DNA of 56,673 bases from a virus (lineage: Duplodnaviria > Caudoviricetes), in the IMG/VR virus record IMGVR_UViG_3300036794_000060, positions 1 to 56,673 of that record; one strand, written 5' to 3'. The translations under genes were made by a program, and so were the position numbers. How positions within the stretch are numbered: the first letter of the stretch is position 1; every line of letters starts with the position of its first letter. The notes under the pieces were generated by a model. It had not been told where the DNA came from. It saw only the letters and a list, made by a program, of their open reading frames with translations, and ran no database searches. This document shows, piece by piece, positions 14,259 through 56,673 of this stretch.

Positions 14259-14927
14259 TTAAATTACCCCGAAGTTCAACAGAGGTCCCTTACCGAACAC
14301 CACGGCGTGACATCTACAGTGCGGATGGACCGCGCCGGGGATTTCCCCATCCGGCGGGTTATCCGCCGTGAACAAACGACCTTCCAACACCGCGCAACGC
14401 GCCTCCACCTTGCTGTCCCCGGCGGTACGCCACACCAACACGTTGTCACCGAGGTCGTCGACCTTTTTCGCGGCGCGACGCCGGTTTTGACCCGCCTGGA
14501 CATGCATCTTCAAATAGAGGGTTTCCCGGTCCATCGCCGAATCGAAATCTTCCGCCGCGGTCAAACGTCGCGCCGCCGCCAGGACGTACATGGCGCGCAT
14601 CCGGGGTTCCTCAGCCGCCACCCGCCGAACCACAGTGGACGCCAGAACGGGTGAACCGCCTTTAGTTCTCCCCGACAAAGATTTAACCGTGGCCATCGAC
14701 CCAACGCGTTCCGCCGCGTTACGGGTGATGCCTAGCTGCATCAACATGGAAATCAGACGCGGCGGGAGCTGGTCGGCTTCGATAGCGTCTCTAGACCCGA
14801 ACCATGCCGTCAACGCTGCCAACACCGCGGCTTGTGAAGCTTGCTGGTCGACAGCCTTCAACAATTGTCGCATCGTGACGGATTTAGCTTTCGCCAACGC
14901 CACCAACGCGCGCGTGCTAGAATTCAT
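14259..14927 (-). CDS. MuF-like minor head protein
   Basis: WRTAGDSKV..RC..LEG and C-terminal HPHCRC motif; follows the portal. Confidence 0.75.
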   Translation of the reverse strand: MNSSTRALVALAKAKSVTMRQLLKAVDQQASQAAVLAALTAWFGSRDAIEADQLPPRLISMLMQLGITRNAAERVGSMATVKSLSGRTKGGSPVLASTVVRRVAAEEPRMRAMYVLAAARRLTAAEDFDSAMDRETLYLKMHVQAGQNRRRAAKKVDDLGDNVLVWRTAGDSKVEARCAVLEGRLFTADNPPDGEIPGAVHPHCRCHAVVFGKGPLLNFGVI

Positions 14928-17900
14928 CGTCCAATGTGAACAACACTTTGCAGGCGTCCACATCCCCATCCGCCGCTAACCTGTTAGCTGCCTCGGCCAC
15001 AACAGGCGAGTAGGCTTTGAAGGTGAACCCGGACCATTCTTTACCGGTTTTCACCGACGCCTGGACACACGAGAGGAAAGCTTTCCTCTCCGCGACTTTA
15101 GAAATCTTTTGAACAGACTGGTCACGTGACTCGCCGCTGACCGAAGCGTCAACGGCGGGACGGTAACCTTGCGCCGGTTCACCAGGCCGATTACCCGATT
15201 CAGGCTTATTCTGTTGCGCAGATGGAAGGTTACCCGGCATCCCAACCGGTTGAACGTTCGGGTTAAAGAACGCCGGACCCGTTGGAGTTGCGATGAAAGG
15301 CTCGTTAGCTTGTTCAATGCTGTACCGTGGAAGGTTGAGTCTGTCACGCATCTCGTTCAACACCATCCCACCGTTGTTCACATACCCCTCAAGAAGAGTG
15401 GCTTCCTTCTGTTCGTCTTCGTCGTCGATGCCGTGGAATTGGAAAGTGACCTCAGGTGGCATACCGAGATAGTTTCGGCAAATCTCGTTGATCACATCGA
15501 TCAGCCACTTAGTTCGAGGCTTAGTACCCCTCGCCAACTGGGAATCCTGCTCACCCTGCTGGTGACCGGCACCACCCATACCACCCATACCGTGATTAGG
15601 AGTGAACCCCAACGATGTTGGCAACACATCGAAAGATGCGCAAATCAACCTGACAATGTGAAGGTCAAGGTCGGATTGGAATTTAGCCTCAAAACCCGCC
15701 GGATAGGATGGTTCGAAACCCGCCGGTAGGAACCGCGCGCGGTGCCTTTCCGCGGTTCTCCCGGAAAGGTCGTCGTTGAAAATCGCCTCATACTGTCTGA
15801 GTTGTTCCGGAGTCATCGCCATATCAACTTTCACGATCATCTCCGGCGTCACACCAGCCGAATACTCACTACGCAACCAGTCGAACCGTTTCAACCACAA
15901 ATCGACATCTGCCAACGACCGCTCAACATTCGAAAACCCGTACGGAGAACTCGTCCGACAATTCCTGACCTTATAGATCAACTGGTCCGTCGGAGACGTA
16001 TCCGGTGGGGGTTTCCCGTAGATCACACTCACAAATTCGTGATCCACCAACTCCGGAGGAGTCGGCTGTTGATACTCCCCCCGAGGGAACCCGTAACGGA
16101 TCTGCTGATAAGCAGGAAATGGTGGCTGCGGAGTCGCACCACGAATATCCAACAAAGGTTTGATAGTGTTCCCACACCAAGCCGCTTTCCCGTGACGTCG
16201 CACGTACAGCACCTCGTTAGGGACACTGACGCAGAACACCTCACCGTCGTAAGCGACAGGATCGACCGACCATGTGCGGTACTCGGTGTGAGACAACGCA
16301 ACCGTGTATTTGCGTCGCTTGTTTTCCGCCTTGATAACTCGACCATTCAGGGTAGTGTCCGAGTCGGAATCGTCGTATCGGACGCTCGCTGAGAAACCCA
16401 CCTTCTGCGCGACTTCTTGCAGATCGTCAGCCATCCGCAAGCTGGAAGTACTGATGGTTTCCGTCGGACCGTAATGTCCATCCCCAAGCATGTAGAACCG
16501 CCAAAAGATAGCCAACTGGCGAGCCGACATATTCTTAACCAGCTCCGGCACATACTTCTCGTGCGCCTTGCCGAACGGCTTCAAATAGTCGTGTAAGACC
16601 TTCCGGCCGATCACAAAGTTAGTCCCGGTGTGACACACGCTGCGATCGAAGATGTGTTCCAATAGATCGCGGAACGGCTCGAAACCCTTCGACTTCGGAG
16701 CTTGCGTAATGAACACTTGGTCGCCGTTGCTGACGCAACCCTCAGATAGATACATTCCCATGAACGCGGCGAAATCATCACCGGAACACTCGAACGACTT
16801 CGAATTTGTACGACCGTTCCCGACCAACTCGAATCGTTCGAGGTCGGACGCATCCCAGTGAGATGTCATCGGGATGCGTCGACCTTGACCACCTCGTCCC
16901 AATGCGGCCAGCTCGGCTGCCGTGACGATGGACTCACCTTGTCGATGACGTGAGCCACCGAGAGCACGCGGCAACCCTTCAATGACCATTCGATGGTTAG
17001 GGGTTACCAACAAGTCCAGAGATCGAGAATGGAAATGGCATAGATCACCCGTGAATGGAGCGCGGTGATAGTAGGTTGCCGGTTGCCACTCAAATGACTT
17101 GGTTTTCTGGTTCCGAGTAGCGAACTCGTCGATGGCAACATCTACCTGCGAGAACGAAAGCCATCCGCGCCGTGTCAAAACTTCCGTATCACCCGAATAA
17201 CATGTAGAGTCGATAATTTCGATAGAGTGGAGGTCGCCACTCAACGCGAAATGCGGATACAAAGAAACCGCATCCAACACCAACTCATCCTCCAATAGCA
17301 TGGTGAGCCATTGGACGAATGTGAGTTGGTTGATGCGGTCTGGTTTCATCCACCACTGATGGAGATGATCAATGTCATCCGCATATTTATCCTGCAAATC
17401 AGAAATCACTTCGTGGCTGGAGGTGTCGGCTCGTTTCGCCAAAGCACGCGCCTTAGCTGTATCGATCCCGAACGACCAATCCAACCCGGTGATAGCAGAA
17501 ATACACGTATCAATACAGGCGCGCATAATGGAAACTTCGTTCGCCGCATCCCGCAACACAGTCCACGGCACCGCGCGAGTGGTGGTCGTTTGGAGGTTCC
17601 ACGACGTTAGATAGTTCCGCAACTGCGGAGGCTGACGACCCGTCGAAGGAATAACCGGCGCGATCGGCGCCGGATACAAACTTTCCCCCGGACCGAACGG
17701 ATACATATTGTTCGGGTCCCGCGGCAAAGACGCAGAACCACTAATCCGTGGCGACCCATTCATCTGCAAACTCGCCAAATACCCAGAAGTGATCTCCTGG
17801 GTAGTCGCACCCCTCGGCAAAGCCAACGCTTTAGCGAGTTCTTTCTGCACTTCTTCCTGAACGACCCGGCGATAACCCGCAAGCCGAGCCGGCCTTGGTG

Positions 17901-17928
17901 TCACCCGGGTAGGACGCCTAATAGGCAT
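14917..17928 (-). CDS. Portal protein containing an intein
   Basis: Directly after TerL; portal-like segments (SPYGFSNVE, ICASFDVLPTSLG, LNEMRDRLNLP) interrupted by a Hint/LAGLIDADG insert. Confidence 0.9.
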   Translation of the reverse strand: MPIRRPTRVTPRPARLAGYRRVVQEEVQKELAKALALPRGATTQEITSGYLASLQMNGSPRISGSASLPRDPNNMYPFGPGESLYPAPIAPVIPSTGRQPPQLRNYLTSWNLQTTTTRAVPWTVLRDAANEVSIMRACIDTCISAITGLDWSFGIDTAKARALAKRADTSSHEVISDLQDKYADDIDHLHQWWMKPDRINQLTFVQWLTMLLEDELVLDAVSLYPHFALSGDLHSIEIIDSTCYSGDTEVLTRRGWLSFSQVDVAIDEFATRNQKTKSFEWQPATYYHRAPFTGDLCHFHSRSLDLLVTPNHRMVIEGLPRALGGSRHRQGESIVTAAELAALGRGGQGRRIPMTSHWDASDLERFELVGNGRTNSKSFECSGDDFAAFMGMYLSEGCVSNGDQVFITQAPKSKGFEPFRDLLEHIFDRSVCHTGTNFVIGRKVLHDYLKPFGKAHEKYVPELVKNMSARQLAIFWRFYMLGDGHYGPTETISTSSLRMADDLQEVAQKVGFSASVRYDDSDSDTTLNGRVIKAENKRRKYTVALSHTEYRTWSVDPVAYDGEVFCVSVPNEVLYVRRHGKAAWCGNTIKPLLDIRGATPQPPFPAYQQIRYGFPRGEYQQPTPPELVDHEFVSVIYGKPPPDTSPTDQLIYKVRNCRTSSPYGFSNVERSLADVDLWLKRFDWLRSEYSAGVTPEMIVKVDMAMTPEQLRQYEAIFNDDLSGRTAERHRARFLPAGFEPSYPAGFEAKFQSDLDLHIVRLICASFDVLPTSLGFTPNHGMGGMGGAGHQQGEQDSQLARGTKPRTKWLIDVINEICRNYLGMPPEVTFQFHGIDDEDEQKEATLLEGYVNNGGMVLNEMRDRLNLPRYSIEQANEPFIATPTGPAFFNPNVQPVGMPGNLPSAQQNKPESGNRPGEPAQGYRPAVDASVSGESRDQSVQKISKVAERKAFLSCVQASVKTGKEWSGFTFKAYSPVVAEAANRLAADGDVDACKVLFTLDDEF
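16168..17202 (-). mobile_element. Intein (345 aa) with LAGLIDADG homing endonuclease
   Basis: Block A CYSGDTEVLTRRGW; block B LLVTPNHRM; FMGMYLSEG and FYMLGDG motifs; ends VFCVSVPNEVLYVRRHGKAAWCGN followed by Thr+1. Confidence 0.92.
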
Positions 17929-17942
17929 ACAACCACCCTCTA

Positions 17943-19367
17943 TTATGCCGCCACCAACAAAGGCGCATGGCAAACAACGCACGACGTGGAACTTTTAGGA
18001 TTCGGCGTCTCACAATAATTACACAAATTAGACATCGCCGACAACCAAATCGCCGCCGTCGCACCCATATTCAACTCAGTAGCAGCCCACACCATCGCAT
18101 CCAAATTGTCCGGAGACTCCTTAGAATCAGGTGTGAACAAACACATCTGATCCTCCAACTTAGGTAGAGTCTTGTAGATGTGGCCGCGTTCCTGCTCCCA
18201 CAACGCAGAAATAGGTTCCGCACGAACCAACTTCCCCCTAGTAGCGCGAACAGTCTTATACGCAACATTAGAATCAATCGACCGGATCACAGTCTCGATG
18301 TAATCTCCACCGTTGTTGACCTCGCCGACAATTCGGTCGGCATGCCACCTGTGGTAGGCGTTCACCGCGGTCGCCATACACGCCTGCGGGGTGCCTTTCA
18401 TCGTACAATCCTCAAGAATGTACAAATGGCCATCATGGCTTCTACCGGCAACCACAATCCCCGTGAAGTCGGCTTTTTCGCCGGAAGTCACGGCCGGGTC
18501 GACACCGACAACGATCCGGGACATTGGTGGCAACACATGTACACGAGTGTTAGCGATCAGATCGTGATTCCACAGAGCGCCTTGAATGTCCTCAAGCAGC
18601 TCACCTTCGAGTTCTTGGAGACCGATCCTCGTCCCGGCATAGATCGCTTTGAGTTCGTCGAGAGCTGTTTTGGAGAGGTTGGCGGCGTTGTCCCACGTTT
18701 TCCCGCGGGTGATAGCGACAGAATCATTATCCCTACCGATGAGATCACGCAAAAAGCCGATCGGACGCGGCGTAGTGGTAATCAGGACTCTAGGGTTTTG
18801 GCCGATACGCAACGCCGGCATCAGCGCCTCGGAAAACATGTCATCGACGCGGTCCATCACCGCGGCCTCGTCAACCCACGCTCCGGCTAGGTTCGATCCT
18901 CTGAGTCTTTCGTATCCGTCGGAAGAGTAGCCGTAAACCCTGCTGCCATTATTTAAACGCACCGTCAAATCGGATGCGTTCATACTTTCAAGCTCCCCGG
19001 GAAGGAACGCTTTCAACAAACCTGAGGGTCCTTCGATGCAAACTTTCCGGCAGTCACGCCAGGTGGGAGCGACGATAGCCCACTCAGTTCCGGGGTTCCG
19101 TACGGCTTGTTCGGCGATCCACTCGGCGCCGGTCCGCGTCTTCCCGAACCCTCTCCCGGCCAAGATCAACCAAATATTCCAGATACCCTCCGGAGGTAGC
19201 TGTTCCGGACGAGCTAAATCGTGCCAGGGTCGTGGTCTGTCGGATACTTTTGTGGCGATTAGACGTTCGAGCGCTTCATTCCTGGCTTGTAGTCGTTTCA
19301 GCATTTCCAGCTGGTCAAGGCCGGCTTCGACTAGCTCAGGGTTCTCGTCGCGCAATGGAACCCCCAT
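17943..19367 (-). CDS. terL: Terminase large subunit
   Basis: Walker A AGRGFGKT, Walker B AWVDEAA, ITTTP motif, nuclease VGVDPA and DNLDA; C-terminal CxxC...CxxC. Confidence 0.95.
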   Translation of the reverse strand: MGVPLRDENPELVEAGLDQLEMLKRLQARNEALERLIATKVSDRPRPWHDLARPEQLPPEGIWNIWLILAGRGFGKTRTGAEWIAEQAVRNPGTEWAIVAPTWRDCRKVCIEGPSGLLKAFLPGELESMNASDLTVRLNNGSRVYGYSSDGYERLRGSNLAGAWVDEAAVMDRVDDMFSEALMPALRIGQNPRVLITTTPRPIGFLRDLIGRDNDSVAITRGKTWDNAANLSKTALDELKAIYAGTRIGLQELEGELLEDIQGALWNHDLIANTRVHVLPPMSRIVVGVDPAVTSGEKADFTGIVVAGRSHDGHLYILEDCTMKGTPQACMATAVNAYHRWHADRIVGEVNNGGDYIETVIRSIDSNVAYKTVRATRGKLVRAEPISALWEQERGHIYKTLPKLEDQMCLFTPDSKESPDNLDAMVWAATELNMGATAAIWLSAMSNLCNYCETPNPKSSTSCVVCHAPLLVAA

Positions 19368-46482: not shown

Positions 46483-47088
46483 TCACCAGTGGATGGTCAA
46501 CGTTTCGGTCCGCTGACCCTGCTCCTCATACACCCGATGATTATAAGCCTGGAAATCAGTATCGACCAGACGTTGACCGATCATCGACAACAAATCCAAC
46601 AGTCTCGCCGCCGGCGCCTTCTCCAAACGTTTCTTCTCTTCTTCCTTCTTCAACGCGCCAGCGAGATGTTCCAACACCGACTTGCGGACGTCGTTCAGTC
46701 CCAAACCGAGCGCCACCAACACCTGCGCACCGACACCCTCACCTTCCCGGATAATGCCAAGGAGGATGTGTTCCGTGCCGATATAGCTGTGACCCAACTG
46801 GAGCGCTTCCCGCAGCGACAGCTCAAGAATCTTTTTCGCCCGCGGCGTGAACGGGATATGACCCGACGGCGACTGCTGACCCATCCCGATGATCTCCTCG
46901 ATGTCCTTACGGACCTTGTCGAGATCAACCGAGAAACTGGACAACACAGCGGCGGCGACACCCTCACCCTCATGGATCAAACCCAAAAGGAGATGTTCGG
47001 TGCCGATATAGTTGTGGTTGAGTTTACGTGCTTCTTCCTGCGCGAGAATGACAACTCTTCGAGCGCGGTCAGTGAGCCGTTCGAACAT
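46483..47088 (-). CDS. Stand-alone ClpC N-terminal (Clp_N repeat) domain protein
   Basis: MFERLTDRARRVVILAQEEAR.LNHNYIGTEHLLLGL...HIPFTPRAKKILELSLREALQLGHSYIGTEH; no AAA+ domain. Confidence 0.95.
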   Translation of the reverse strand: MFERLTDRARRVVILAQEEARKLNHNYIGTEHLLLGLIHEGEGVAAAVLSSFSVDLDKVRKDIEEIIGMGQQSPSGHIPFTPRAKKILELSLREALQLGHSYIGTEHILLGIIREGEGVGAQVLVALGLGLNDVRKSVLEHLAGALKKEEEKKRLEKAPAARLLDLLSMIGQRLVDTDFQAYNHRVYEEQGQRTETLTIHW

Positions 47089-47117
47089 GTTTCTTTCTTT
47101 CGGCGTATACAAAGGAA

Positions 47118-47154
47118 GACAGCCGGAGTGTGAAAGAGACACACTCCGGCTGTC
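47118..47154 (-). terminator. Intrinsic terminator
   Basis: 15-bp stem followed by TTCCTTT on the minus strand. Confidence 0.65.
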
Positions 47155-47160
47155 CCGGGA

Positions 47161-47595
47161 TTAGTTACCCGCTGGTGGGGTAGGTTGCGGCGCGATAGCG
47201 TCAACCGCTGTCACGTCGGCACCCAGCTGGCTATCCGCGGAAGCTGAAGACGCCTGATCGCTCTGGAGCTGGGTCACAGCCGCCTGGAGCGCAGACACAT
47301 CAACAGCCGGGTTAGCCTGCTGCAACGCGGCGATTTCCGAATTAATATTCGCAATCGCGTTCTGAACACTTGCATCCTGAGCTTGGAGCTGCGCAGTCAG
47401 AGTGTTGACCTGAGAGTCAAGAGTCTGGACCTGCGTAGTCAAAGCATCAACATCGGCTTGGGTAGACACGAGCTGTCCTCCTAATTGATTAATTTGGTCC
47501 GTTTGTTGATTCATGTAGGACCAGACTTGGTTCAAGACGTGGTTAAGTTCGCCTTGGGTTACATAGTTACGATCGTGGAATTGTGGATCGGTCAT
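47161..47595 (-). CDS. Gln/Ala-rich coiled-coil protein
   Basis: Heptad pattern VDALTTQVQTLDSQVNTLTAQLQ. Confidence 0.75.
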   Translation of the reverse strand: MTDPQFHDRNYVTQGELNHVLNQVWSYMNQQTDQINQLGGQLVSTQADVDALTTQVQTLDSQVNTLTAQLQAQDASVQNAIANINSEIAALQQANPAVDVSALQAAVTQLQSDQASSASADSQLGADVTAVDAIAPQPTPPAGN

Positions 47596-47784
47596 TGTTT
47601 CCCCCCAAAAATTGGGGTTTCCTGGGATTGATCGACCATCACCTGATACATGACAGCGGTCCGTTCATACAGTTCCGCCAGATCATGTTCGCCTAGCGCG
47701 TCCCATCGGTGGCCGAGGACTCGACAGCCTGTGGCCATGCGTTGCCAGAAACCCGCGTCGGATTCAGCTAGACGCATCGTGGGT

Positions 47785-48777
47785 TCAGTGGCCGTGGATG
47801 TGGGATGAGAAACCCTTCGCTGTGAGCCACGTTTGCATGGCGCCAGCCAAAGCAACATCCGCGGCATTCGTATCCGGCGAAGGAGTCGGAGTGGGTGTTG
47901 GCGTCGGTGTTGGGGTCGGGGTAGGAGTCGGTGTTGGGGTTGGGATTACTGAAGGGAACGGGGACGAAGTAGTACCTGTAAGGGACTGCCAATCACTATT
48001 CGCCTGAGCTGTGTCCAATCCTTCGAAAGTAGACCCGGAAGCCTCAACCTCCTCCGGAACAACAACAACCCATCCCTCGCCGGTCCCCTGCGAACCAGAC
48101 CCCCAATACTGGGTGAAAGCGGCGTAGGTAATAGGCTGAACCTGACCCCAAGTCACGCAATACACATACTTGGAATCAAACCCGACAAGCGGTACCGCGT
48201 GACCACCGACGATCTGCGCGCCACGACGATTAGTCGGAACGTCCCACGGCTGACCACTATCAAACTGGGTTTCGAAAACCGCCGGGACATCAAAACCCGT
48301 GTACACCGCGCCGAGATAGTCAATACACGTCTGGACAAGTGGAAGATTCGTGATGTCGATCTGCGCGAACCCGGTCGGGGTATACCCGGCGAAACCATTA
48401 GAAGTCCACCATTGCAACACCTGCTGCAACTCGGCGCCACTGTCATTAGCGCCAGTATTCGGGTTATACCCGGTGATGGCCTCGTACGCTGTCAACGCTT
48501 CAACACTGGTCACCGGCGGCGCCTCGGCCTGCGCATACACAGCGACCATGTCAACAATGTGACCGATCCCCGCGACCGTACAATCCCCACAACCCTGAAA
48601 ATTAGGCAAAGACGGGATCGAGTTGTCCGGACCGTTCGCCAACATCCCCCACGTTGGGACGTTGGAATACCAGTTCACCGACGGTGGAGGGGTTAACGTC
48701 CCTGTTGGTCTCAAATGCACCCGGGGACGCGTCGGGTCATTCGGCTTACGACCATACAATCCGCGAGCGCGGGTCAT
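47785..48777 (-). CDS. Papain-like cysteine peptidase with Pro-Thr linker
   Basis: GCGDCTVAG (Cys), GGHAVPLVGFD (His), VTWG; PT repeat near the C-terminus. Confidence 0.8.
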   Translation of the reverse strand: MTRARGLYGRKPNDPTRPRVHLRPTGTLTPPPSVNWYSNVPTWGMLANGPDNSIPSLPNFQGCGDCTVAGIGHIVDMVAVYAQAEAPPVTSVEALTAYEAITGYNPNTGANDSGAELQQVLQWWTSNGFAGYTPTGFAQIDITNLPLVQTCIDYLGAVYTGFDVPAVFETQFDSGQPWDVPTNRRGAQIVGGHAVPLVGFDSKYVYCVTWGQVQPITYAAFTQYWGSGSQGTGEGWVVVVPEEVEASGSTFEGLDTAQANSDWQSLTGTTSSPFPSVIPTPTPTPTPTPTPTPTPTPTPSPDTNAADVALAGAMQTWLTAKGFSSHIHGH

Positions 48778-48986
48778 CGAAAAAAACTCCTACTCGAATT
48801 TGCGTCTGGTAGACTCGGTTGGGTTCCGTCGGAAGTGGAGACCACTGCCTGGCACTGTGCAGATCAGTTGCATACCGAGCAGGCGAGCCGTAGCTGTCGG
48901 GTTTGTGTTCGGCGGCTAGGTCGTGGTTTAAGAACGAGGCGACTCTGCGCGCCTACTCCACTTCCGGCGGAACCTTCAAAGGTTTG

Positions 48987-49505
48987 TTACGACGTGAAGT
49001 ATTGGACGAAGTTCGCGGTCAGCTGAGCCGGCGTGTACTGCGACCACTGGCCACCGTTCCACCCCACCCAATTCGTTGGTGCGACACTCAGAACGGTGAC
49101 GTCATTCGCCACCACAAGAGCGTTACCTGTCACCTGCGAGTCGGGGAAACATTGAATTGTTCCGGCGGATGCGGCGTAAGCGGACGTCAACGCCGTGTTC
49201 AACACCGGCGCCGCCAATGCGGCTGTCCGCACAATCGTCAACGTCACACCAGTAGCGGAACCTGTCGCCGCCGCGGAAATAATAACCGTGGTGCCGTTAG
49301 TGACAGACGCGATCGTCGCACCGTTGGGGATCGATCCGCCGGAAATGGCGGCGCCAACATCGCTCGACGTGAACGCCGCGGTAGCCGATGTGACAGTGGT
49401 AGTGGTGTTCAACACACCGTCAGACACAGAACGCGACGGAGTGAATTGAACAAAACTTTGCAGGAAAGACAGCGATTTAATAGGTAGATAGTTAACGGCG
49501 GTCAT
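48987..49505 (-). CDS. Beta-rich Thr/Ala protein, possible virion decoration
   Basis: FTSSDVGAAISGGSIPNGATIASVTNGTTVIISAAAT repeat-like segment. Confidence 0.6.
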   Translation of the reverse strand: MTAVNYLPIKSLSFLQSFVQFTPSRSVSDGVLNTTTTVTSATAAFTSSDVGAAISGGSIPNGATIASVTNGTTVIISAAATGSATGVTLTIVRTAALAAPVLNTALTSAYAASAGTIQCFPDSQVTGNALVVANDVTVLSVAPTNWVGWNGGQWSQYTPAQLTANFVQYFTS

Positions 49506-49563
49506 GCGATCCTCTTGTTTAAATGGGGATGAAAAGATGCGGTCGCAACCGCGCGTTTCGGGA

Positions 49564-49602
49564 GGATGGTGTCGACGCGACGCCGAACGGTCGACACCAT
49601 CC
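49564..49602. repeat. 13-bp inverted repeat upstream of the 49.5-42 kb gene block
   Basis: GGATGGTGTCGAC-N13-GTCGACACCATCC. Confidence 0.8.
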
Positions 49603-50381
49603 CGCCAATTTTTCGGGACATTCGTTCCCGCAGGTCTTCTAAATGAAAACCGCTGTATACAGAAGAGTCGGTGCGGGATTTAAGACCGCGGGGAACGAAA
49701 AACTAAATATCCGAAGGAGCGGTCATCAGAAACCGCAAATCGAGGAGCATGTCACGATCAAACTCATACCCTCGGATAGTTTTCTTCAACACAGGGTTGG
49801 TAGTTTTGATAAGTTCGGTGAGAGCGATGACGTGTTGGTCGATCGCTTCGACGGTGGGACAGTCGTACACGGCGCCGTTTTGGCCGAAAATCGTGTCCTT
49901 GGTGACTTTCGGTTTTTTCGTGGCGCGCATAACCCACCTCATGGCGTATAATGAAGGTATGTAGTGTCTAGAACAGACAACACGACACCCCCTCGGCTAT
50001 GGTCCGACCTGGGTCTCGTCTACCACGACCGGCTTTACGTCCGGCACACCCATAAAAGCTCTACAAAGTGGAGTGTCACCCATTGGCATCGGTGTACCCG
50101 GCGGAAAGCACGGGAGATGCTGCGGAAGGGTTTGGAACCTATCCCTTATCGCACGCGTCACAGCGTCCTGTGGGACCTCTGGTGAAACAGAGGTAACAGT
50201 GGTTACGGAGTGTGGAGGCCGGCCGCGCGCCACAGGCGTCCAAACGAGGGACGCGACACCGCCGGCAATCTACCCGGACGCGCCGAGCAGCAGCTTTACG
50301 TGACCACACCAACCCCATGTGGGTAGACCTGTGGCATCATGTCGACCATCACACAGCTATACCCGGAAAGGGGTGTACACA

Positions 50382-50864
50382 GTGGCAGCAAGTCTCCACT
50401 CAATCCAAGGCGAGCAACAACACACCAATCAAACATATGACGCCGACACCGCCGACATAGAAGACTACGTCGCATCCGTCCCCGACGAAGTCTTAGAGTG
50501 CCGCGAAGGTGTCCACCGCTTCCCGTCGATCCGTCAAGGGATCGAGTTCATCGGGAAAGACCAAAACGGCTTCTACATCCGGGAAGTCCGCTGCCTCAGC
50601 TGTGAACGCGCGATCCGCCGCGAAGAGTGGATATCCCGCGGCACAGGCCAGCACAGACGGTGGGAGATGCTCGACCGGACCCTCCGCTACATCACCGTCA
50701 ACGGCGTGTCCTACCTGGCGAAACCCCACACCGGGAGGATGCCTAAGCGGAAGATCAGGAACACCATAGTCACCCAGCAGCTGTCCGGGTTCAAGTCGAT
50801 CCGGGAGCTTGAGAAGAAGATCATCAAAGCTCAACCGAAGACTCTCAAAGAGGTGGACGACTGA
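50382..50864 (+). CDS. Hypothetical protein with C...H...CxxC
   Basis: LECREGVH...VRCLSC; GAAAGGGG RBS. Confidence 0.7.
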   Translation: MAASLHSIQGEQQHTNQTYDADTADIEDYVASVPDEVLECREGVHRFPSIRQGIEFIGKDQNGFYIREVRCLSCERAIRREEWISRGTGQHRRWEMLDRTLRYITVNGVSYLAKPHTGRMPKRKIRNTIVTQQLSGFKSIRELEKKIIKAQPKTLKEVDD

Positions 50865-51334
50865 TGGGGGAGATGGCTGTAAGGTTCGACGACCTCGACA
50901 AGTACCAACATGGGACGGTGAACGTCATCCCGTGGAACACCCCGTCGTTGGTCTTCAGCGTCGATGGGGGAGCGTTCAAGCTTGAGCTGTCCGAGGAGAA
51001 CAGGAAGCAGTTCTTCGCCGACCTCGAACCCTACATCCGAGCAGCGGAGTGTCTGTCAGAACGCCGTGAGCTCACCGAGGAAGTCCGGGAACGCATGGAC
51101 CCCGCACGGATACCCCCGTACTCCAAACGTAAGGAGCAGGCAGAGCTCCCGCGGAGCCGCACCCGACACTCAGCTGAGGAGCTGAGGGAGTGTCGAGCGT
51201 GGATGACTCGGAACGGGATCAACTACCGCACGACAGGTCAAATCGCGTCGGACATCTGGAAGGCGTGGGAGGACAACGACGTTCGACTGCTCAACCCGGG
51301 ACGCATCCCAGCGCTCCCAGCGCTCACCGCGTAA
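50864..51334 (+). CDS. lsr2: Lsr2-like nucleoid-associated protein
   Basis: DDLD, FSVDG..FKLELSEEN...LEPYI (dimerisation domain); RAWM..NG.....GQI (DNA-binding domain). Confidence 0.85.
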   Translation: MGEMAVRFDDLDKYQHGTVNVIPWNTPSLVFSVDGGAFKLELSEENRKQFFADLEPYIRAAECLSERRELTEEVRERMDPARIPPYSKRKEQAELPRSRTRHSAEELRECRAWMTRNGINYRTTGQIASDIWKAWEDNDVRLLNPGRIPALPALTA

Positions 51335-51355
51335 CGTCCCCTCCACAGGAAGCGA

Positions 51356-51778
51356 GTGACCAGCGTGACCCAAACCATCTCCGTTCCTCGCCAGCGCGGC
51401 CTCTCAGCCGGCGAGACCCGCATCGATCTTCTGCCGCTACAAGCATCTTTGCTGAGAATGACTCTCATCCGAAGCAGGGAACAAATCGATCTGTTCGACG
51501 ACAGGTTCGGCATCCTCGGCTGGTCGAACATGCAACTCGGCATCAACCGGTCCGCCGTCAGACTCTTGAACAAGCTTCACGACTCAGACGACGGTGCGGT
51601 CTTGACGATGACGAAGGAGGAACGGGAACATCTCCACACGATCCTCGCAATCGCGTTGGAGCAACCGGCGGCGTTCGGCGCGACAGATCGTGTGAAAACT
51701 GGGGTGGTGAAAACGTTCCTTCACCAGATGGAGATGATCCGCCGGAAACTACCGCCGAGAGGCGCCGGCTGCTACTAG
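51356..51778 (+). CDS. Hypothetical protein
   Basis: 140-aa ORF with AGGAAG RBS. Confidence 0.6.
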   Translation: MTSVTQTISVPRQRGLSAGETRIDLLPLQASLLRMTLIRSREQIDLFDDRFGILGWSNMQLGINRSAVRLLNKLHDSDDGAVLTMTKEEREHLHTILAIALEQPAAFGATDRVKTGVVKTFLHQMEMIRRKLPPRGAGCY

Positions 51779-51782
51779 ACGA

Positions 51783-51816
51783 AAGAGGAGCCACCTACGG
51801 GTGGCTCCTCTTCTTT
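51783..51816. terminator. Terminator between convergent gene blocks
   Basis: AAGAGGAGCCACC-N4-GGTGGCTCCTCTT followed by CTTT. Confidence 0.75.
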
Positions 51817-52434
51817 GCGCCATTGCTGGCGCTCACGGCGACGCTGACGACGTTTAAACACTACCTGGACACTCTTAGGCCACCGGCCGAAAACCCACTC
51901 GGGTGTTGGTCTCCAACCGCAATACCACGAATTCCAAAAATGACTAGCACCCAGCATCCTCGCCATCTTCAGCTCTCCTGATCCGCCGAGACACCCAACG
52001 GTAATGCCACCTGGCCAACAAATGTGGATCACGCCAGCTGTTACACATCGGCCGGTCAACACACTGACAACACCACAACGACCGATGACAACGCCACCGG
52101 CGCCTCAACACCCCGTCGAAAACCTGCGCCCGCGCGAGGCCGCCAAAAAACCGGTGGAACACACCCCACATGGCGGCCACGCTTACACGCGCAGCCAGCC
52201 GACGTTTACGACCCGGACCAGTCGGAACAAGATTCTCCGGGTCCTCATAGAACGCGCAAGCAGCCTCATCACGGTCATCGGGACCCTTCGACGGACCATG
52301 CTCACACATCACGACACGGAAAATTCCGACACTGATGAACATACAAAGTCTTATCGTCCGATTGGCACACACTCGGAAACCCACACACGGGACACGGAGT
52401 CTCGATCAACAACTCCCGAGCGAACAAACCCGTC

Positions 52435-55308
52435 TCACCGGTTAAGTTGGACTCGGAACGTGCCGCTTGCATCATTGCTCTCCTCCGACCAACTCACACC
52501 AGTACGAGAAAGGTTATACAAGCGCCACCGTTGACGACACTCGTCACATTCCCACAGACTGTCTCTGCCGGCGTGACGATCAGCAACATCTTCTTTAGAC
52601 GGCAGCGTACAGTCATGCAGCGGCGGGGAATCCGTAACCTCAACCCAACCCACAATACTCCTTACGGCATCGAGATACGGTAGGAGCCATCAGATAGTCG
52701 ACTACCCTCAACAACATCCTCCGAGTCACCATCGACCAGCCAACATGGGTGATCGATCGGCACACCCAACACAAACAATGCCATCATCCGAGCGAGACTT
52801 TCCTCCACATTCAATTCGTTCAAGATGTCTCCGCCGGGGGAGTAGAGGAACATGCGGAAACCGTCATCGAGCTTATCGAGTCTGATGAGGTGGCCGTCTG
52901 CTTCAATGCCGGTGCTGACCGGCTTCGATGAACTCATATCCTCTTTTTCTTCGGCGAGTTCTTGTTCGATCTCGCGGCGCCACAATTTTTCCTCGGCGAA
53001 ACGCATCTGCCGACGAGACCTCGACGTATCAGAACAATCAGGACCAGGTCCGCAACGACAGATAGGACACTGACCCACACCGGTTCGACCCAACAATCTC
53101 ACCGTTGATCCGCGGGGATATCATGTCGACCAGCGCGACGCCTCTTACCCAACTTCCGCCGAACAGCAAAAGGGTCACGAACCGCACGGCCGTGATCTTT
53201 AAATTTGTGTGGTTTACACAGTTGGCATCCACGCCACCTGCGATGCGAGGAGTGAGCCATCAATCATTCCGAGCGACAAGAAAATGCTCCCCGACCGGCA
53301 ACACCGCGAACAAACCATCATCATCCCAATAGAAACGAGCGCCGAACCCCACCCACGCATTGTGAGACTGACCGTGACCCGCTTCATACGTACATTGAAT
53401 CTGATGTGTCTCGCCGTCTCGGGTGAGGATCGGACCAGCCGACTGACACCTCGGGGTACCGGCTTTTATGTCACGCCGGGTGATACGTATCTCGGGTTTC
53501 TCAGAGTCCATATCTTAATCATCCCAGAAACTCGGCATCCGACCACCATTGTAGCCGGGGACACCATCCACGCCGTGGTGGAATCAGAAGACATGCCACT
53601 CCATGTCCTCGTCCTCCCGACGAGCAAGCTCCTCGTCCACCAGGACCCGAAGCTCTTCACGTTCACGGGTACGCTGGTTGCGGCGATACTCTGAATCGTC
53701 ATTCCTGCGGTCGCTACCACGACACTGCCGACAGCGACACACCCACCACCTACCGCCAGGAGTGTTACGAAGCATCTTCGCCATAATCCTCGAACCGCCG
53801 AACACCCTCAAAGAACGAACGCCTAGCAGCCTCAACCAAATCTTCGTCCGTGGACTCTTCGAACCGTTCAGGATCAGCAGCGATAGCCGCCAACGCCTTC
53901 TCACGGAACTGCTCAGCGAGACTCATCTCAGTCGTCCTCAGACACTGTGGTAGATTTCTCGACCCCACCGGCGCTGGTACTTAGACCACTTCGGAATCTT
54001 CGGCTCCTCGGCGAACTTCACATCACTACGCCGCCTATGCAGCTGCGACTTCGCATCCGACAAAGTTTTCGGCCGCGGACCGGGACCGTTACAGCCACAC
54101 GAATCAAACGTGATCCCCGCCGCCACCAGCATGTCAACCTTCCGCCACTGGGATTCATTCCCCCGCCGCGGAGCCTTAAAATCGTGACCCAAATCAACCA
54201 TCAACCCACCGCAATGAGGACAGTGAACATTCGGCTCACGCCAGTAGGCTCCCCAATGCTTAGCGGTGAACCGACACGGCAGACACGCAAAATGTGTTTT
54301 CGACGGGTGCATTGAGTAGCGACACATCAGGATTTTCCCCTCAGCCACTCGCGGAGGATGCAAAAAAACCAGAAGTCAGGCATACTTGGCGCATGTGTAA
54401 CATCTACACTTCGGATCAGCCGCCAACGGTTTGAACTCCGGACACTCAGAACCGTGAGCGTCGCGGAGAATTTTCCCACACGCCGAACACACATACTCGT
54501 GGCGGCAATCATAATGCCACTCGTTCCGCGGCACCCAACGACGCTCACCAGCAACAACGTCCCACCGGTGCTGGGTCTCCCAGCCGCAAATCCCCCGAAG
54601 ATTCTCCCGACCATACCTGGCCAGCATGTACTGACCCCACTTGCTCAACCTGATCTCAGGCTGATGAACCACCCCGGGTTTCCCCCGACACCACTTCCGA
54701 GTGTTCTTCCGCGAACGATGCGGCGCAGACTCCGGAGCCAACACCCGAGCCTCATCAAGTTTCGGCTTAGTGTCCCACCCATCGTATGCGTGACCCATAC
54801 ATCACCTCAACATCGGTCGACCCGTGACCTTCTCCCATATCGCATCATCATCAAACGTCACACGCTCAACAACCTTGCGATAACGCTTATCATGCTGGAA
54901 GTCGTAACACATCCACAGCTCAAGCCGCAGCCGCCACAGAAACGTACACGTCCCATCGCCATGAGACTTCACCGAAGGACGACCGTTCCCCGGCTCAAAC
55001 CAACGCGGCTTATGCAAATCCAGCCAATACAAAATTTGGCCGACCACATAATGCCACAGTGGTTCAACAAACAGCTCCGCGCCACACGTATAGGTGATCT
55101 CACCCGTCTCCGAATCCTTACGACCACCGCTGTAGAGCTCGAACCCCTCGATTTTCATACCCCCGGGACAAGCACCCATGCTTCATCGGCGAGACGCTCA
55201 TGCTCCTCACACGACACCTGCTCACACTCCTCAAACGGCAACTCACAGATAGAACAATGAGTGTCATACCATTCGCGGAGCGACCGAATCTCTTCCTGCC
55301 ACTGTGTC
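52435..55308 (-). other. Run of small Cys-rich hypothetical genes downstream of the tRNA cluster
   Basis: ORFs 52435-52653, 52662-53102, 53260-53511, 53584-53784, 54376-54798, 54802-55179. Confidence 0.6.
53938..54327 (-). CDS. Zn-binding hypothetical protein
   Basis: ACLPCR...CPHCGG.M.DLGHDFKAPR...W.KV...G..FDSCGC. Confidence 0.75.
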   Translation of the reverse strand: MCRYSMHPSKTHFACLPCRFTAKHWGAYWREPNVHCPHCGGLMVDLGHDFKAPRRGNESQWRKVDMLVAAGITFDSCGCNGPGPRPKTLSDAKSQLHRRRSDVKFAEEPKIPKWSKYQRRWGREIYHSV

Positions 55309-55422
55309 ATTCAGATACCCGTCACGTGGGTCAGCCGGTGAGTTAAATGCCGGGACGGTCGGCCTGGGGAAAGGAGGAAAGCGCAGGCGGTCCGTCCCGG
55401 CAAGCTTCAGTATAGCAGAACG

Positions 55423-55494
55423 ATCTCCCACCAGGATTCGAACCTAGATCCTCGGGACCAAAACCCGATCTGCTGCCAGTTGCACCATGGGAGA
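55423..55494 (-). tRNA. tRNA-Gln(UUG)
   Basis: Acceptor TCTCCCA/TGGGAGA; anticodon arm TCGGG-TTTTGGT-CCCGA; GGTTCGAATCC. Confidence 0.9.
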
Positions 55495-55495
55495 G

Positions 55496-55574
55496 TGGGG
55501 TGAGTGACGGGACTTGAACCCGCTAGTGACCAGGTTCACAACCTGGCGCCGCGGCCACTTTGGCTTCGCTCACC
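55496..55574 (-). tRNA. tRNA-His(GUG) with encoded G-1 and CCA
   Basis: CCAGG-TTGTGAA-CCTGG; GGTTCAAGTCC; ends CCCA. Confidence 0.9.
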
Positions 55575-55590
55575 ATGTAGTTGTCGAACG

Positions 55591-55663
55591 CTTCCCCACA
55601 AGGACTCGAACCTCGATTAACTGGACCAGAACCAGTCGTCTTGCCAAATTAAACGACAGGGAA
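55591..55663 (-). tRNA. tRNA-Gln(CUG)
   Basis: ACTGG-TTCTGGT-CCAGT; GGTTCGAGTCC. Confidence 0.9.
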
Positions 55664-55666
55664 ACA

Positions 55667-55926
55667 GCAGAACGGCGAGACAACACCGGTTCATTACGCC
55701 GGACTCGCCGCTCCGCATCGAACGGAGACATGCGGAGAGCAAGCTCTCCCGCCATCCTCCACCACCCACCCCGCCAGGATGGGAGACCGTCGACACCGAT
55801 AATCCGGACTCGACGATCCTTCGAACAGGCCAGCTTGCGCCGGGCGCCACCACCCACCCCGCCAGAGTGGGAGGAAAGGCGAGACAACACCGGTATGCCA
55901 GCCGGACTCGCCTTCCCCTTCAAACA
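55667..55926 (-). ncRNA. Three tandem imperfect copies of a structured RNA motif
   Basis: GTTYGAW-stem(CGAGTCCGG...CGGTG)-[CCCAYYC-TGGCG-GGGTGGG-TGGTGG]; stems vary in sequence yet keep pairing. Confidence 0.65.
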
Positions 55927-55980
55927 AACCACTCAACCTCAACAACATTGCGCCGTCACCCTTCGGAGGGTGACACGTCT

Positions 55981-55990
55981 AGTGTACCAC
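55981..55990 (-). promoter_or_regulatory. Extended -10 promoter upstream of the RNA repeats and tRNAs
   Basis: GTGG-TACACT on the minus strand followed by hairpin GTCACCCT-CCGA-AGGGTGAC. Confidence 0.55.
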
Positions 55991-55996
55991 GAAAGC

Positions 55997-56455
55997 TCAG
56001 GCCACTTCCGACCAGTGGTCGTTGCAGGCATGGCGTAGCGTGGTCGGGTTCACTCCGAGCTGCTCAGCCAGTTGACGCCACGTATACGCGCCAGTGGCGT
56101 AGCTCGCACGCGCCTGTTGAACCAGTTGAGAGGTCAAGACCGAGCCGGGGTTCTTTTCACCGGCGAATCGGACAGCAAACTCGGCGTTCGTCTTCACGCG
56201 ATGGCATGAGTGGCAACGGACCACACATTTCGCCAGCTCGACATCCCGTCGGGACTGTGACCAACTCCAGACCTTATGGTCGACCTTTTCCGTGTAGTCA
56301 CGGTGATCAACTTCAAGTCTCTCCGTAGAACCACAGTCAACACATGGACCATTCGCAGACAACCAAGCCTGACGACGCTTTCTCATCCAATTACGCTGGT
56401 ACTCACGCTGCGCTTCACGTGTACGCATCGGCATACGATCAGTCTGCTCCTTCAC
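55997..56455 (-). CDS. HNH endonuclease with C-terminal HTH, inside the tRNA cluster
   Basis: CVDCGS..RLEVDH...KCVVRCHSCHRVKT; GEKNPGSVLT; WRQLAEQLGVNPTTL. Confidence 0.9.
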   Translation of the reverse strand: MKEQTDRMPMRTREAQREYQRNWMRKRRQAWLSANGPCVDCGSTERLEVDHRDYTEKVDHKVWSWSQSRRDVELAKCVVRCHSCHRVKTNAEFAVRFAGEKNPGSVLTSQLVQQARASYATGAYTWRQLAEQLGVNPTTLRHACNDHWSEVA

Positions 56456-56461
56456 AATGTG

Positions 56462-56533
56462 AGCCCCCGGGAGGAATCGGACCCCCGACCAGCTTATTAC
56501 AAGTAAGCTGCTCTACCACTGAGCTACAGAGGC
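56462..56533 (-). tRNA. tRNA-Thr(UGU)
   Basis: TAGCTCAGTGGTAGAGC D arm; GCTTA-CTTGTAA-TAAGC; T-loop TCCGATT. Confidence 0.88.
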
Positions 56534-56551
56534 AAATCTCGGCTGATCACG

Positions 56552-56621
56552 AGACGATGACGGGAGTCGAACCCGTAATGCGACAGCTTTGCAGGCCACG
56601 CCAGCACCATGCCACATCGCC
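56552..56621 (-). tRNA. tRNA-Cys(GCA), atypical D arm
   Basis: GGCGATG/CATCGTC acceptor, U73, loop CTGCAAA, GGTTCGACTCC. Confidence 0.7.
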
Positions 56622-56625
56622 ACTG

Positions 56626-56673
56626 TACCGAGAGAAGGACTCGAACCCTCGCGCCGCTGCGTGTAAAGCAGCT
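56626..56673 (-). tRNA. tRNA-Val(UAC), 5' part outside the window
   Basis: GCTGC-TTTACAC-GCAGC; GGTTCGAGTCC. Confidence 0.85.

Follow-up and report, generated by a model that had tools for sequence, protein, structure and literature searches.

Structured, tRNA-derived RNAs embedded in the transfer RNA (tRNA) arrays of phages are already known. RNAC and RNAD of phage T4 are encoded in the T4 tRNA gene region; in E. coli, the short 3' external transcribed spacer of glyW-cysT-leuZ is released by tRNA-processing RNases and acts as a small RNA (sRNA) sponge by base pairing; and ToxI repeats, which can occur in phages, are short, near-identical and tandem and stand beside an endoribonuclease toxin gene. 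RNAC and RNAD have been described as stable small RNAs of yet unexplained function (PMC9697503), theta ribozymes as residents of tRNA arrays in Bacteroidota and Bacillota gut phages, where they are linked with processing of the tRNA 3' trailer (PMC10879173), and YrlA RNAs, in the account of Chen et al., as known from actinobacteria and their phages, with nearly invariant T and D hairpins (Chen et al., 2014; PMC4201824). The array considered here, which is genuine and unannotated, lies at the right end of IMGVR_UViG_3300036794_000060, a 56,673-base virus stretch (hereafter the window) from a soil metagenome setting with a completeness estimate of ~67%. It consists of a non-coding leader of ~310 bases (313 nucleotides (nt); 55976 to 55664, minus strand) with two or three related hairpin modules ahead of three tRNA genes, and it is read here, at a probability of roughly one half, as the structured non-coding 5' leader of a tRNA-Gln(CUG), tRNA-His and tRNA-Gln(UUG) sub-operon.

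Architecture of the array

The tandem units U1, U2 and U3 read on the minus strand exactly as the original prediction, made from the sequence alone, had set them out, and repeat structure, folding and covariation support the arrangement. The common plan is GUUYGAW followed by a hairpin, H1, with a lower stem of 10-13 base pairs (bp) and the core GAG-U-CCGG/loop/CCGG-UGUUGU-CUC; in U1 and U2, a second, G-rich hairpin, H2 (CCCAYYCU / GGC / GGGGUGGG), and then UGGUGG are added. The parts of the leader are as follows, with z-scores from folding (for H1, against dinucleotide shuffles) and bit scores from R1, a covariance model built from U1 and U3.

55981 to 55989, minus strand: extended -10 promoter-like site TGgTACACT, directly past the stop codon of an HNH endonuclease gene (from the sequence)
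55954 to 55975, minus strand: 5'-proximal hairpin GUCACCCU-CCGA-AGGGUGAC (-13.7 to -14.0 kcal/mol, z = -3.07)
55926 to 55953, minus strand: G/U-rich linker that includes a single-stranded UGUUGU (from the sequence)
55847 to 55925, minus strand: U1, composed of GUUUGAA, H1, H2 and UGGUGG (73.0 bits with R1; H1 z = -4.60)
55827 to 55846, minus strand: spacer with a CCGGC-GCAA-GCUGG hairpin (-7.8 kcal/mol, z = -0.95, alone not significant)
55759 to 55826, minus strand: U2, composed of GUUCGAA, a shorter H1, H2 and UGGUGG (16.9 bits with R1, E = 0.00032 within 401 nt; H1 z = -3.44)
55724 to 55758, minus strand: spacer with a GGAGAG-CUUG-CUCUCC hairpin, the most variable part of the array (from sequence and folding)
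55667 to 55723, minus strand: U3, composed of GUUCGAU and H1, without H2 (83.6 bits with R1; H1 z = -3.69)

In U1 and U3, the lower stem ends in GAG/CUC and is followed by a 1 x 6 internal loop (U versus UGUUGU), a 4-bp upper stem (CCGG/CCGG) and a loop of 8-9 nt of free sequence. The lower stem is 12 bp long with an 8-nt loop in U1 (H1 at 55918 to 55872, H2 at 55871 to 55853) and 13 bp long with a 9-nt loop in U3, while in U2 H1 (55819 to 55784) is shortened to 10 bp in the lower stem and 3 bp in the upper, with a 2 x 2 internal loop between them. The Ro-type helix with a bulged C that had been proposed for this core is better explained as the CCGG/CCGG upper stem above the 1 x 6 internal loop. 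At the downstream end, the tRNA takes the place of H2: U3 ends at 55667, and just 3 nt (UGU) separate it from the start of tRNA-Gln(CUG) at 55663. At the other end, the position of the -10 box suggests that the hairpin at 55954 to 55975 would lie at or near the 5' end of the RNA.

The units are 57-79 nt long and 60-86% alike, with a mean column identity of 77% across the three. CCGGACTCGNC occurs in three copies spaced by 105 and 98 nt, a 36-nt repeat (83% identity, spacing 88) spans the second hairpin and UGGUGG, and two inverted repeats of 13 and 11 nt are present. Five copies of CGAGTCCGG are found in the window against 1.24 expected (2 of 100 shuffles reach five), three of them within 212 nt; TGGCGGGGTGGGTGGTGG has two copies against 0.14 expected, a number that none of 100 shuffles attains; and GTGTTGTCT, at up to one mismatch, has 27 matches against 15.4 expected (1 of 100 shuffles reaches 27), four of which are exact and two of these outside the array. 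The claimed invariance of CGAGTCCGG / CGAGUCCGG holds inside the window, but the last G is A in both variant contigs that cover U3.

An H1-core look-alike was also seen at 50250 to 50284 (minus strand), with a 6-bp stem, a U / 6-nt internal loop, CCGG/CCGG and an 8-nt loop. It lies inside a 376-nt divergent intergenic region (49943 to 50318) and scores 18.3 bits with R1 (E = 0.02 over the whole window), a weak likeness and a possible stray copy of the core.

Folding, covariation and coding potential

H1 is more stable than its dinucleotide shuffles in every unit (z from -3.44 to -4.60), H2 alone is not significantly so (z about -1.1 to -1.2), and the 313-nt leader folds at -156.1 kcal/mol (z = -4.41). 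For covariation, the three H1 cores were fitted to R1. The outer stems were found to covary as had been claimed: 47 of 48 cells are paired, three pairs have changed on both sides and eight further pair types occur, values that 19 of 500 shuffles reach, and when the partner is slid by 1-3 columns pairing falls to 37-54%. Coming from three paralogues on a structure-fitted alignment, this support is modest, and supportive rather than conclusive.

The pairing is also strand-biased. On the minus strand, which is that of the tRNAs, G.U pairs fill 7 of the 48 cells and A.C none; the complement of each H1 or H2 is less stable by 4.5-6.4 kcal/mol, and the whole region folds at -159.4 kcal/mol (minus) as compared with -120.9 kcal/mol (plus). 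Within the 84-amino-acid (aa) open reading frame (ORF) that runs over the units (55948 to 55694), the conserved blocks fall in different frames, since the 98-nt period is not a multiple of three, and no frame is common to the units. None of the four ORFs that overlap the units has a significant Pfam or PHROG match, one ORF of 120 aa giving a PHROG match at chance level (E = 0.041). As the stems covary, G.U pairs appear only on the tRNA strand and no frame is shared, the evidence points to an array that acts as RNA from the tRNA strand and is non-coding.

The same palindromes could instead belong to a DNA-level element, whether origin iterons, single-strand initiation hairpins, or recombination or homing sites tied to the HNH gene. 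Three spaced imperfect palindromes with a conserved core, a G-rich tract alongside, an adjoining and polymorphic HNH gene and a plus strand that folds well against its shuffles would suit such an element; nevertheless, it is very improbable, given that the palindrome arms covary rather than hold one binding sequence, that the G.U pairs become C.A mismatches on the other strand, that the orientation and the 3-nt tRNA junction fit RNA, and that the array is kept in a natural variant without the HNH gene.

Natural variants and the promoter-like site

Contigs of four other soil runs (single contigs, depth about 4-8) were aligned to 55300-56673. In X5, a contig of 1073 nt, 55725 is joined to 55843 via 31 other letters, and that phage therefore has U1 and U3 and no U2; the 31 letters, on the minus strand, can be read, in our view, as a variant of the CUUG spacer hairpin. 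The same contig has 55990 to 56547 (the HNH gene and the tRNA-Thr region) replaced by 306 letters, too few for the 459-nt HNH ORF, with homology restarting exactly at the promoter-like site (55990), and its linker (55926 to 55953) has one 4-nt and three 1-nt deletions. The HNH gene is a free-standing mobile endonuclease with presence/absence polymorphism, outside the element.

In another variant, X3, three changes fall in the 50-nt U3 hairpin, namely a C-to-U substitution that turns G-C into G.U, one loop base, and a G-to-A substitution that opens the loop-closing pair, the last two being present in X5 as well. The spacer at 55724 to 55758, by comparison, has five substitutions and two indels in 35 nt (seven changes versus three in the U3 hairpin). 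The sole change listed for U1 is in the loop (55901) and is found in both covering runs. Change is thus concentrated in loops and spacers, the lower stems and the UGUUGU loop being spared, and the number of modules varies. Beyond the leader, tRNA-Gln(UUG) of X3 (55426-55492) differs by about 16 substitutions and several indels, and none are listed for tRNA-His or tRNA-Gln(CUG); either an allelic difference or an assembly that mixes in another tRNA-Gln may account for this.

The TGG-TACACT promoter of the original prediction survives in part: the sequence is present at 55989 to 55981 and is plausible as an extended -10 site, but it is not called by a sigma-70 scan that depends on a -35 box. In all three covering runs, the -10 hexamer is TACAAT instead of TACACT (fifth base A, place 55982), a change that makes for a better -10 box.

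The variants also bear on whether H1 could be a processing signal, that is, a set of sites for a double-strand-specific or structure-specific RNase, of RNase III type or encoded by a phage, that would separate the HNH or upstream transcript from the tRNAs and leave stabilizing 3' hairpins. Phage T7 RNase III sites are of this general plan, a stem, an asymmetric internal loop and a further stem, and in the present array the internal loop is conserved and the units stand between messenger RNA (mRNA) and tRNAs. This account is distinctly unlikely: the upper stem measures merely 3-4 bp, the units lie downstream of their own promoter-like site, the HNH-less variant retains units, and a nuclease gene was not found nearby.

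Relation to tRNA

Mimicry of tRNA had been proposed for the units, and its primary-sequence part stands. A unit can be read as a T-loop, a 7-nt acceptor-like strand, U and CC, a closing loop and a complementary 7-nt strand, and beyond this acceptor-like 3' strand U1 and U2 have 2 nt and then the potential for a 4-bp stem with a 9-10-nt loop that includes GG. The order T, closed acceptor stem, D is that of YrlA, and it is equally the order seen wherever two copies of one tRNA meet. Counted from the T-loop U, the 7-nt acceptor-like strand ends after 19 nt in U3, 18 in U1 and 17 in U2; the canonical tRNA value is 19 nt.

The structural part of the claim fails. The tRNA-like fold is worse than the hairpin fold by 25.5 (U1) and 15.6 (U2) kcal/mol and was ruled out for these units on energy. 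Acceptor pairing in the tRNA register reaches 5 of 7, as opposed to 7 of 7 in the hairpin register in U1 and U3. The T-stem is absent from U1 and U2, and the alternative T-arm fold of U3 is broken by natural variants, in which the T-stem loses two pairs and the long hairpin stays intact. GTTCGA, which had been likened to a T-loop, is indeed T-loop-like, but its sole intact T-stem is the one broken in the variants and the hexamer is common here, with 67 copies in the window against 52.8 expected.

Nor do the units score as degenerate tRNA pseudogenes. The tRNA model RF00005 (29 bits) has no match in the region at the gathering score or at E up to 10, and ARAGORN finds no tRNA in the array at default or -ps settings. 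At -ps80, it gives one weak pseudo tRNA-Ala(UGC) (80%) in another register, at 55778 to 55701, straddling U2 and U3. What carries this call is its perfect T-arm (CUCCG / UUCGAUG / CGGAG), which shares sequence with the 5' strand of U3 H1; the acceptor stem pairs at 5 of 7 positions and the anticodon stem is poor. Because of the fold energies, the missing T-stems, the variants, the register of pairing and the commonness of GTTCGA, the present structure of the array is not tRNA-like; an origin of the modules from tRNA or a tRNA junction is plausible from the sequence.

Such an origin would also suit neutral relics, decaying copies of a tandemly duplicated tRNA gene or tRNA-tRNA junction that have no present function and whose copy number drifts by unequal recombination. 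The pseudo tRNA-Ala call with its perfect T-arm, the near-canonical 19-, 18- and 17-nt distances, the absence of U2 from one variant and the failure to find homologues elsewhere all agree with decay, and this is the least unlikely of the alternatives. It remains unlikely in view of the negative Rfam tRNA (E up to 10) and ARAGORN (default or -ps) results and of pairing that is kept in the hairpin register rather than in the tRNA register. Moreover, the lower stems differ between units yet all pair, with G.U and without A.C, and the variant changes spare the stem while the adjoining spacer changes freely.

Tests against known RNA families

The window was compared with the 4227 families of Rfam 15 at gathering thresholds and then at E up to 10. 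Gathering thresholds returned tRNAs only, the region itself had no match at E up to 10, and the laxest filters on 341 nt (55655-55995) gave three junk matches of 12-14 bits. The description of the array as structured, unrecognized and abutting a tRNA is thereby borne out, as it is by ARAGORN at default settings, by the non-coding character of the region and by the 3-nt junction.

YrlA, the basis of the Y-RNA reading put forward at the outset, fared poorly. Its model (RF02553, gathering score 69 bits) has no match on the units (55655-55995) at E up to 10, and the only YrlA match in the window (55350-56673), at 25.5 bits, falls on the tRNA-Cys/tRNA-Thr junction; tRNA dimers are named as a known source of YrlA false positives in the description of the family (PMC4201824). 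TROVE (PF05731) was found in none of four records (the window, its 97.9-kb relative G002, G001 and G003), with control genomes positive, in a search in which the window is ~67% complete and the host genome is not included, and RtcB is absent from the window and three close relatives including G002. Of the YrlA-type stem-loops, a T-stem exists in U3 alone and is weakened in a variant, and U1 and U2 could form a D-like stem of 4 bp at an energy cost, although the order T-like, closed stem, D-like is kept in the units. The 5' motif GNCGAAN0-1G, given as a putative Rsr contact in YrlA (PMC4201824), is unmatched: the units have UUUGAAG, UUCGAAG and UUCGAUG, in which the leading G is missing and CGAA is present in U2 alone.

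These results weigh on the idea that the modules are tRNA-mimic or Y-RNA-like decoys acting in trans, cut into small RNAs in the T / closed acceptor stem / D order of YrlA, and bind a host or phage protein, for instance a tRNA-targeting defence nuclease, Ro60/Rsr, RNase P or the CCA-adding enzyme. The order H0, GUUCGA, H1, H2 parallels V, T, AS, D of YrlA, and in Mycobacterium smegmatis YrlA the closed 7-bp acceptor stem is described as cut by RNase P, the 5' half gaining CA (PMC4201824). Similarly, U1 and U2 have the possible 4-bp stem and GG-holding loop past the acceptor-like strand, CCCA follows their helices, and a weak YrlA-like spacer element occurs in the tRNA array of phage Bxz1. Decoys of this kind, whatever the target, are nonetheless quite unlikely given the negative YrlA covariance model on the units, the lack of TROVE and RtcB in all four records, the missing or variant-weakened T-stems, the energy cost of the tRNA-like fold and the unmatched GNCGAAN0-1G.

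A novel type of phage decoy RNA, an intermediate form midway between tRNA and mimic, can also be conceived. RNase P would cut 5' of each H1, 3' trimming of U1 and U2 would stop at CCCA, and the resulting ~50-nt minihelices with tRNA-like ends would soak up a host factor that acts on or attacks tRNA acceptor ends; the 10-13 bp of the H1 helix are about the length of a stacked acceptor and T stem. This form, with a tRNA-targeting defence toxin, the CCA-adding enzyme or RNase P as candidate targets, is improbable. If true, the array would show how YrlA-type mimics arise from tRNA-tRNA junctions in phage arrays.

Tandem structured repeats are likewise reminiscent of type III antitoxins (toxI-type) and of self-cleaving ribozyme arrays (HDV-like/theta, hammerhead, twister and others), both of which had been raised as checks for this locus. 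The toxI-like array was rejected, as the repeats are long (57-79 nt), diverged (60-86% alike) and unequal in period (98 and 105 nt), with no toxin gene adjoining; toxin or defence families were found in none of six neighbouring ORFs by PADLOC, and none of nine has any Pfam family above its cut-off, one third of the genome being unseen, and the neighbouring ORFs have no family hinting at an RNA-binding partner or nuclease. For HDV-like ribozymes, a loose descriptor of our own, in place of the published theta descriptor, gave three distinct start sites on the minus strand across 12 parameter variants, and 1 of 20 shuffles gives any match. These matches were rejected in turn: they need an AUA/UGU P3 (A-U/G.U) and a U-U P1.1, break CCGG/CCGG and are not common to the units, which moreover lie 5' of their tRNA. 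The known ribozyme classes in Rfam, HDV-type families among them, and the ToxI families that it includes have no match at E up to 10. Neither antitoxin repeats nor ribozymes are thus more than barely credible here.

An intrinsic terminator was rejected as well, with no site in 54700-56673 and no U run after H1 or H2. What the region does show are the properties of a structured tRNA-operon leader or spacer, a functional class rather than a sequence family: it is on the tRNA strand, contiguous with the tRNAs and non-coding, has stable autonomous folds and is preceded by a promoter-like site.

Distribution

A blastn search (word 11) of 55400-56100 against 50,697 phage records matched 140 records, and among the matches listed (40) all fall on tRNA genes. 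The 140 records include 108 Mycobacterium, 11 Gordonia and 11 Microbacterium phages, and since the phage tRNA genes resemble those of these groups the host is likely actinobacterial. Megablast of 47000-55400 gave a single 127-nt match, to Rhodococcus phage REQ2. Among viral contigs, the pattern CGAGTCCGG..CGGTGTTGTCTCG had no match, an H2 18-mer had ten loci whose contexts are all unrelated, and a three-part pattern had one match, in a coding region with no tRNA. A metagenome pattern scan returned two loci of one sequence, with no tRNA and no extended stem, and a genome pattern scan 15 loci, about the estimated chance number, none with more than five extra stem pairs. Relatives of the neighbouring proteins led no further, the 140-aa neighbour having one distant locus, the HNH protein two and the 118-aa neighbour none, with unlike tRNA arrays there. 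A capsid-like protein has at least 80 loci, three at 98% identity, but the array region is absent from those records. R1 had matches at E up to 1 in 0/5 and 0/36 related or other viral records (0/41), and the array is so far confined to this phage lineage.

The close relative G002 (locus L097, 1659-1717 and 2392-2450) has a record that ends inside another part of a tRNA array. This array begins after a TTGACA / 17 nt / TAAGGT promoter-like site and includes another HNH gene; its long spacer hairpins, among them one with a 13-bp stem that separates tRNA-Met from tRNA-Pro, have no sequence relation to the units. In phage Bxz1 (NC_004687: 95733-95858; locus L120, 1218-1343), tRNA-Met and tRNA-Cys are separated by a spacer of 124 nt that can be aligned over its full length with YrlA, with T, closed acceptor-like and D hairpins, at a score of just 20.6 bits (gathering score 69); this spacer is a tRNA-like non-tRNA element within a mycobacteriophage tRNA array. 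Given the spacer hairpins of G002 and the weak YrlA-like element of Bxz1, this phage is not alone among actinophages in having structured non-tRNA inserts in its tRNA array.

Genomic setting

In minus-strand order, the right end of the window holds a truncated tRNA, tRNA-Cys, tRNA-Thr, the HNH gene, the array, tRNA-Gln(CUG), tRNA-His, tRNA-Gln(UUG) and small ORFs. The neighbours of the array are as follows.

55997 to 56455, minus strand: gene for an HNH endonuclease, which precedes the promoter-like site (best match to PHROG HNH families, E = 8.5e-33)
55590 to 55663, minus strand: tRNA-Gln(CUG), the first tRNA after the leader (ARAGORN; Rfam tRNA, 44.6 bits)
55422 to 55573, minus strand: tRNA-His(GUG) and tRNA-Gln(UUG), the remainder of the sub-operon (ARAGORN and Rfam)

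tRNA-His (55496-55573, minus strand) encodes its own CCA and is directly joined to tRNA-Gln(UUG), and both tRNA-Gln genes are without an encoded CCA. At 20 nt past the last tRNA, at 55349-55401 (minus strand), stands a GC-rich 10-bp stem (GCCGGGACGG / CCGUCCCGGC) with a 33-nt loop and then AUUUAA; it possibly delimits the tRNA sub-operon, and the terminator scan gave no call there.

Far from the array, the Phage_portal domain of a 1021-aa portal ORF (14917-17982, minus strand) is confined to aa 639-883, with LAGLIDADG_3 at aa 490-557 and PHROG matches to thymidylate synthase and ribonucleotide reductase (RNR) at aa 257-363 and 555-607. From these domain positions, the portal gene looks like the carrier of an intein with a homing endonuclease inside.

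Proposed role

Under the preferred interpretation, that of a structured 5' leader, transcription would begin at the extended -10 site just past the mobile HNH gene, with read-through from upstream tRNAs as a possible alternative source. The modules, which probably descended from tRNA or tRNA-junction sequence, are now long G.U-rich hairpins. The leader would be freed when RNase P cuts at the 5' side of tRNA-Gln. The freed RNA, beginning with a hairpin and closing with that of U3 3 nt short of the 3' terminus, would be expected to resist exonucleases. The sequence itself shows the repeats, hairpins, strand bias, lack of coding character and variants among populations, and promoter activity, RNase P release, stability and function are inferences. 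A role in cis is most likely, in which self-contained folding modules would hold the untranslated precursor in a compact form, protect it against Rho and against RNases that depend on a 5' end, and prevent mispairing of the tRNAs with flanking RNA; the conserved 1 x 6 internal loop may serve as a recognition site for a protein or RNase. In favour of a leader are the spared U3 stem beside a changing spacer in X3, the TACAAT hexamer in all three covering runs, the closeness of U3 to the tRNA (3 nt) and the long spacer hairpins in the tRNA array of G002.

Several points weigh against this interpretation. Protection in cis is a generic proposal, and U2 is dispensable in one natural variant (X5), a loss that fits a weak or redundant role. 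The promoter-like site lacks a -35 box. The stretch is contained in 16 runs, all of them DNA and none RNA. As no homologue was found beyond near-identical soil variants, covariation is limited to the three paralogues, with 19 of 500 shuffles equalling it. The plus strand beats its own shuffles too (z = -5.00), so that the z-score alone does not pick the strand.

Comparison with known systems

Phage tRNA arrays are usually annotated as tRNAs and "spacers"; here, the spacer is an organized, selected, modular RNA of ~310 nt with its own promoter-like site and natural variation in copy number. Should it be only a cis folding or protection device, the result would be a useful annotation and no surprise, and its general importance is limited, pending homologues or expression data, because the array is so far confined to one soil phage lineage. 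If expressed and stable, it would provide a tractable case of tRNA-derived sequence recruited to another RNA role.

The likeness to ToxI is that of tandem structured RNA repeats, without the short, near-identical units and the toxin gene seen there. With theta ribozymes, the array shares its place as a small structured RNA embedded in a phage tRNA array and tied to tRNA maturation; in contrast, those ribozymes have a nested double-pseudoknot fold (P1, P1.1, P2 and P3) with a catalytic C, which the present units, lying 5' of the tRNA, do not fit. The glyW-cysT-leuZ spacer is likewise a by-product of tRNA processing, one that survives and can act in trans, whereas the present leader is ~310 nt long, modular and almost fully base-paired, and a scan for targets complementary to its loops returned the element's own opposite strand only.

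Like YrlA, the array is a structured RNA other than tRNA in which tRNA-like pieces succeed one another as variable hairpin, T, closed acceptor-like hairpin and D. It differs in that it has no covariance-model match and no Ro60/TROVE gene, that its T and D hairpins are absent or much less stable alternatives, that the 5' GNCGAAN0-1G is unmatched, and that the units are tandem and form the leader to tRNAs. T4 RNAC and RNAD are single RNAs rather than an array of modules, from a phage whose hosts are enterobacteria, and no likeness to them was seen in sequence or in the Rfam comparison, whose families may or may not include them. They are nevertheless structured non-tRNA RNAs made with phage tRNAs, with a role yet to be explained, and the array, if expressed and stable, would join them and phage YrlA on the short list of such RNAs.

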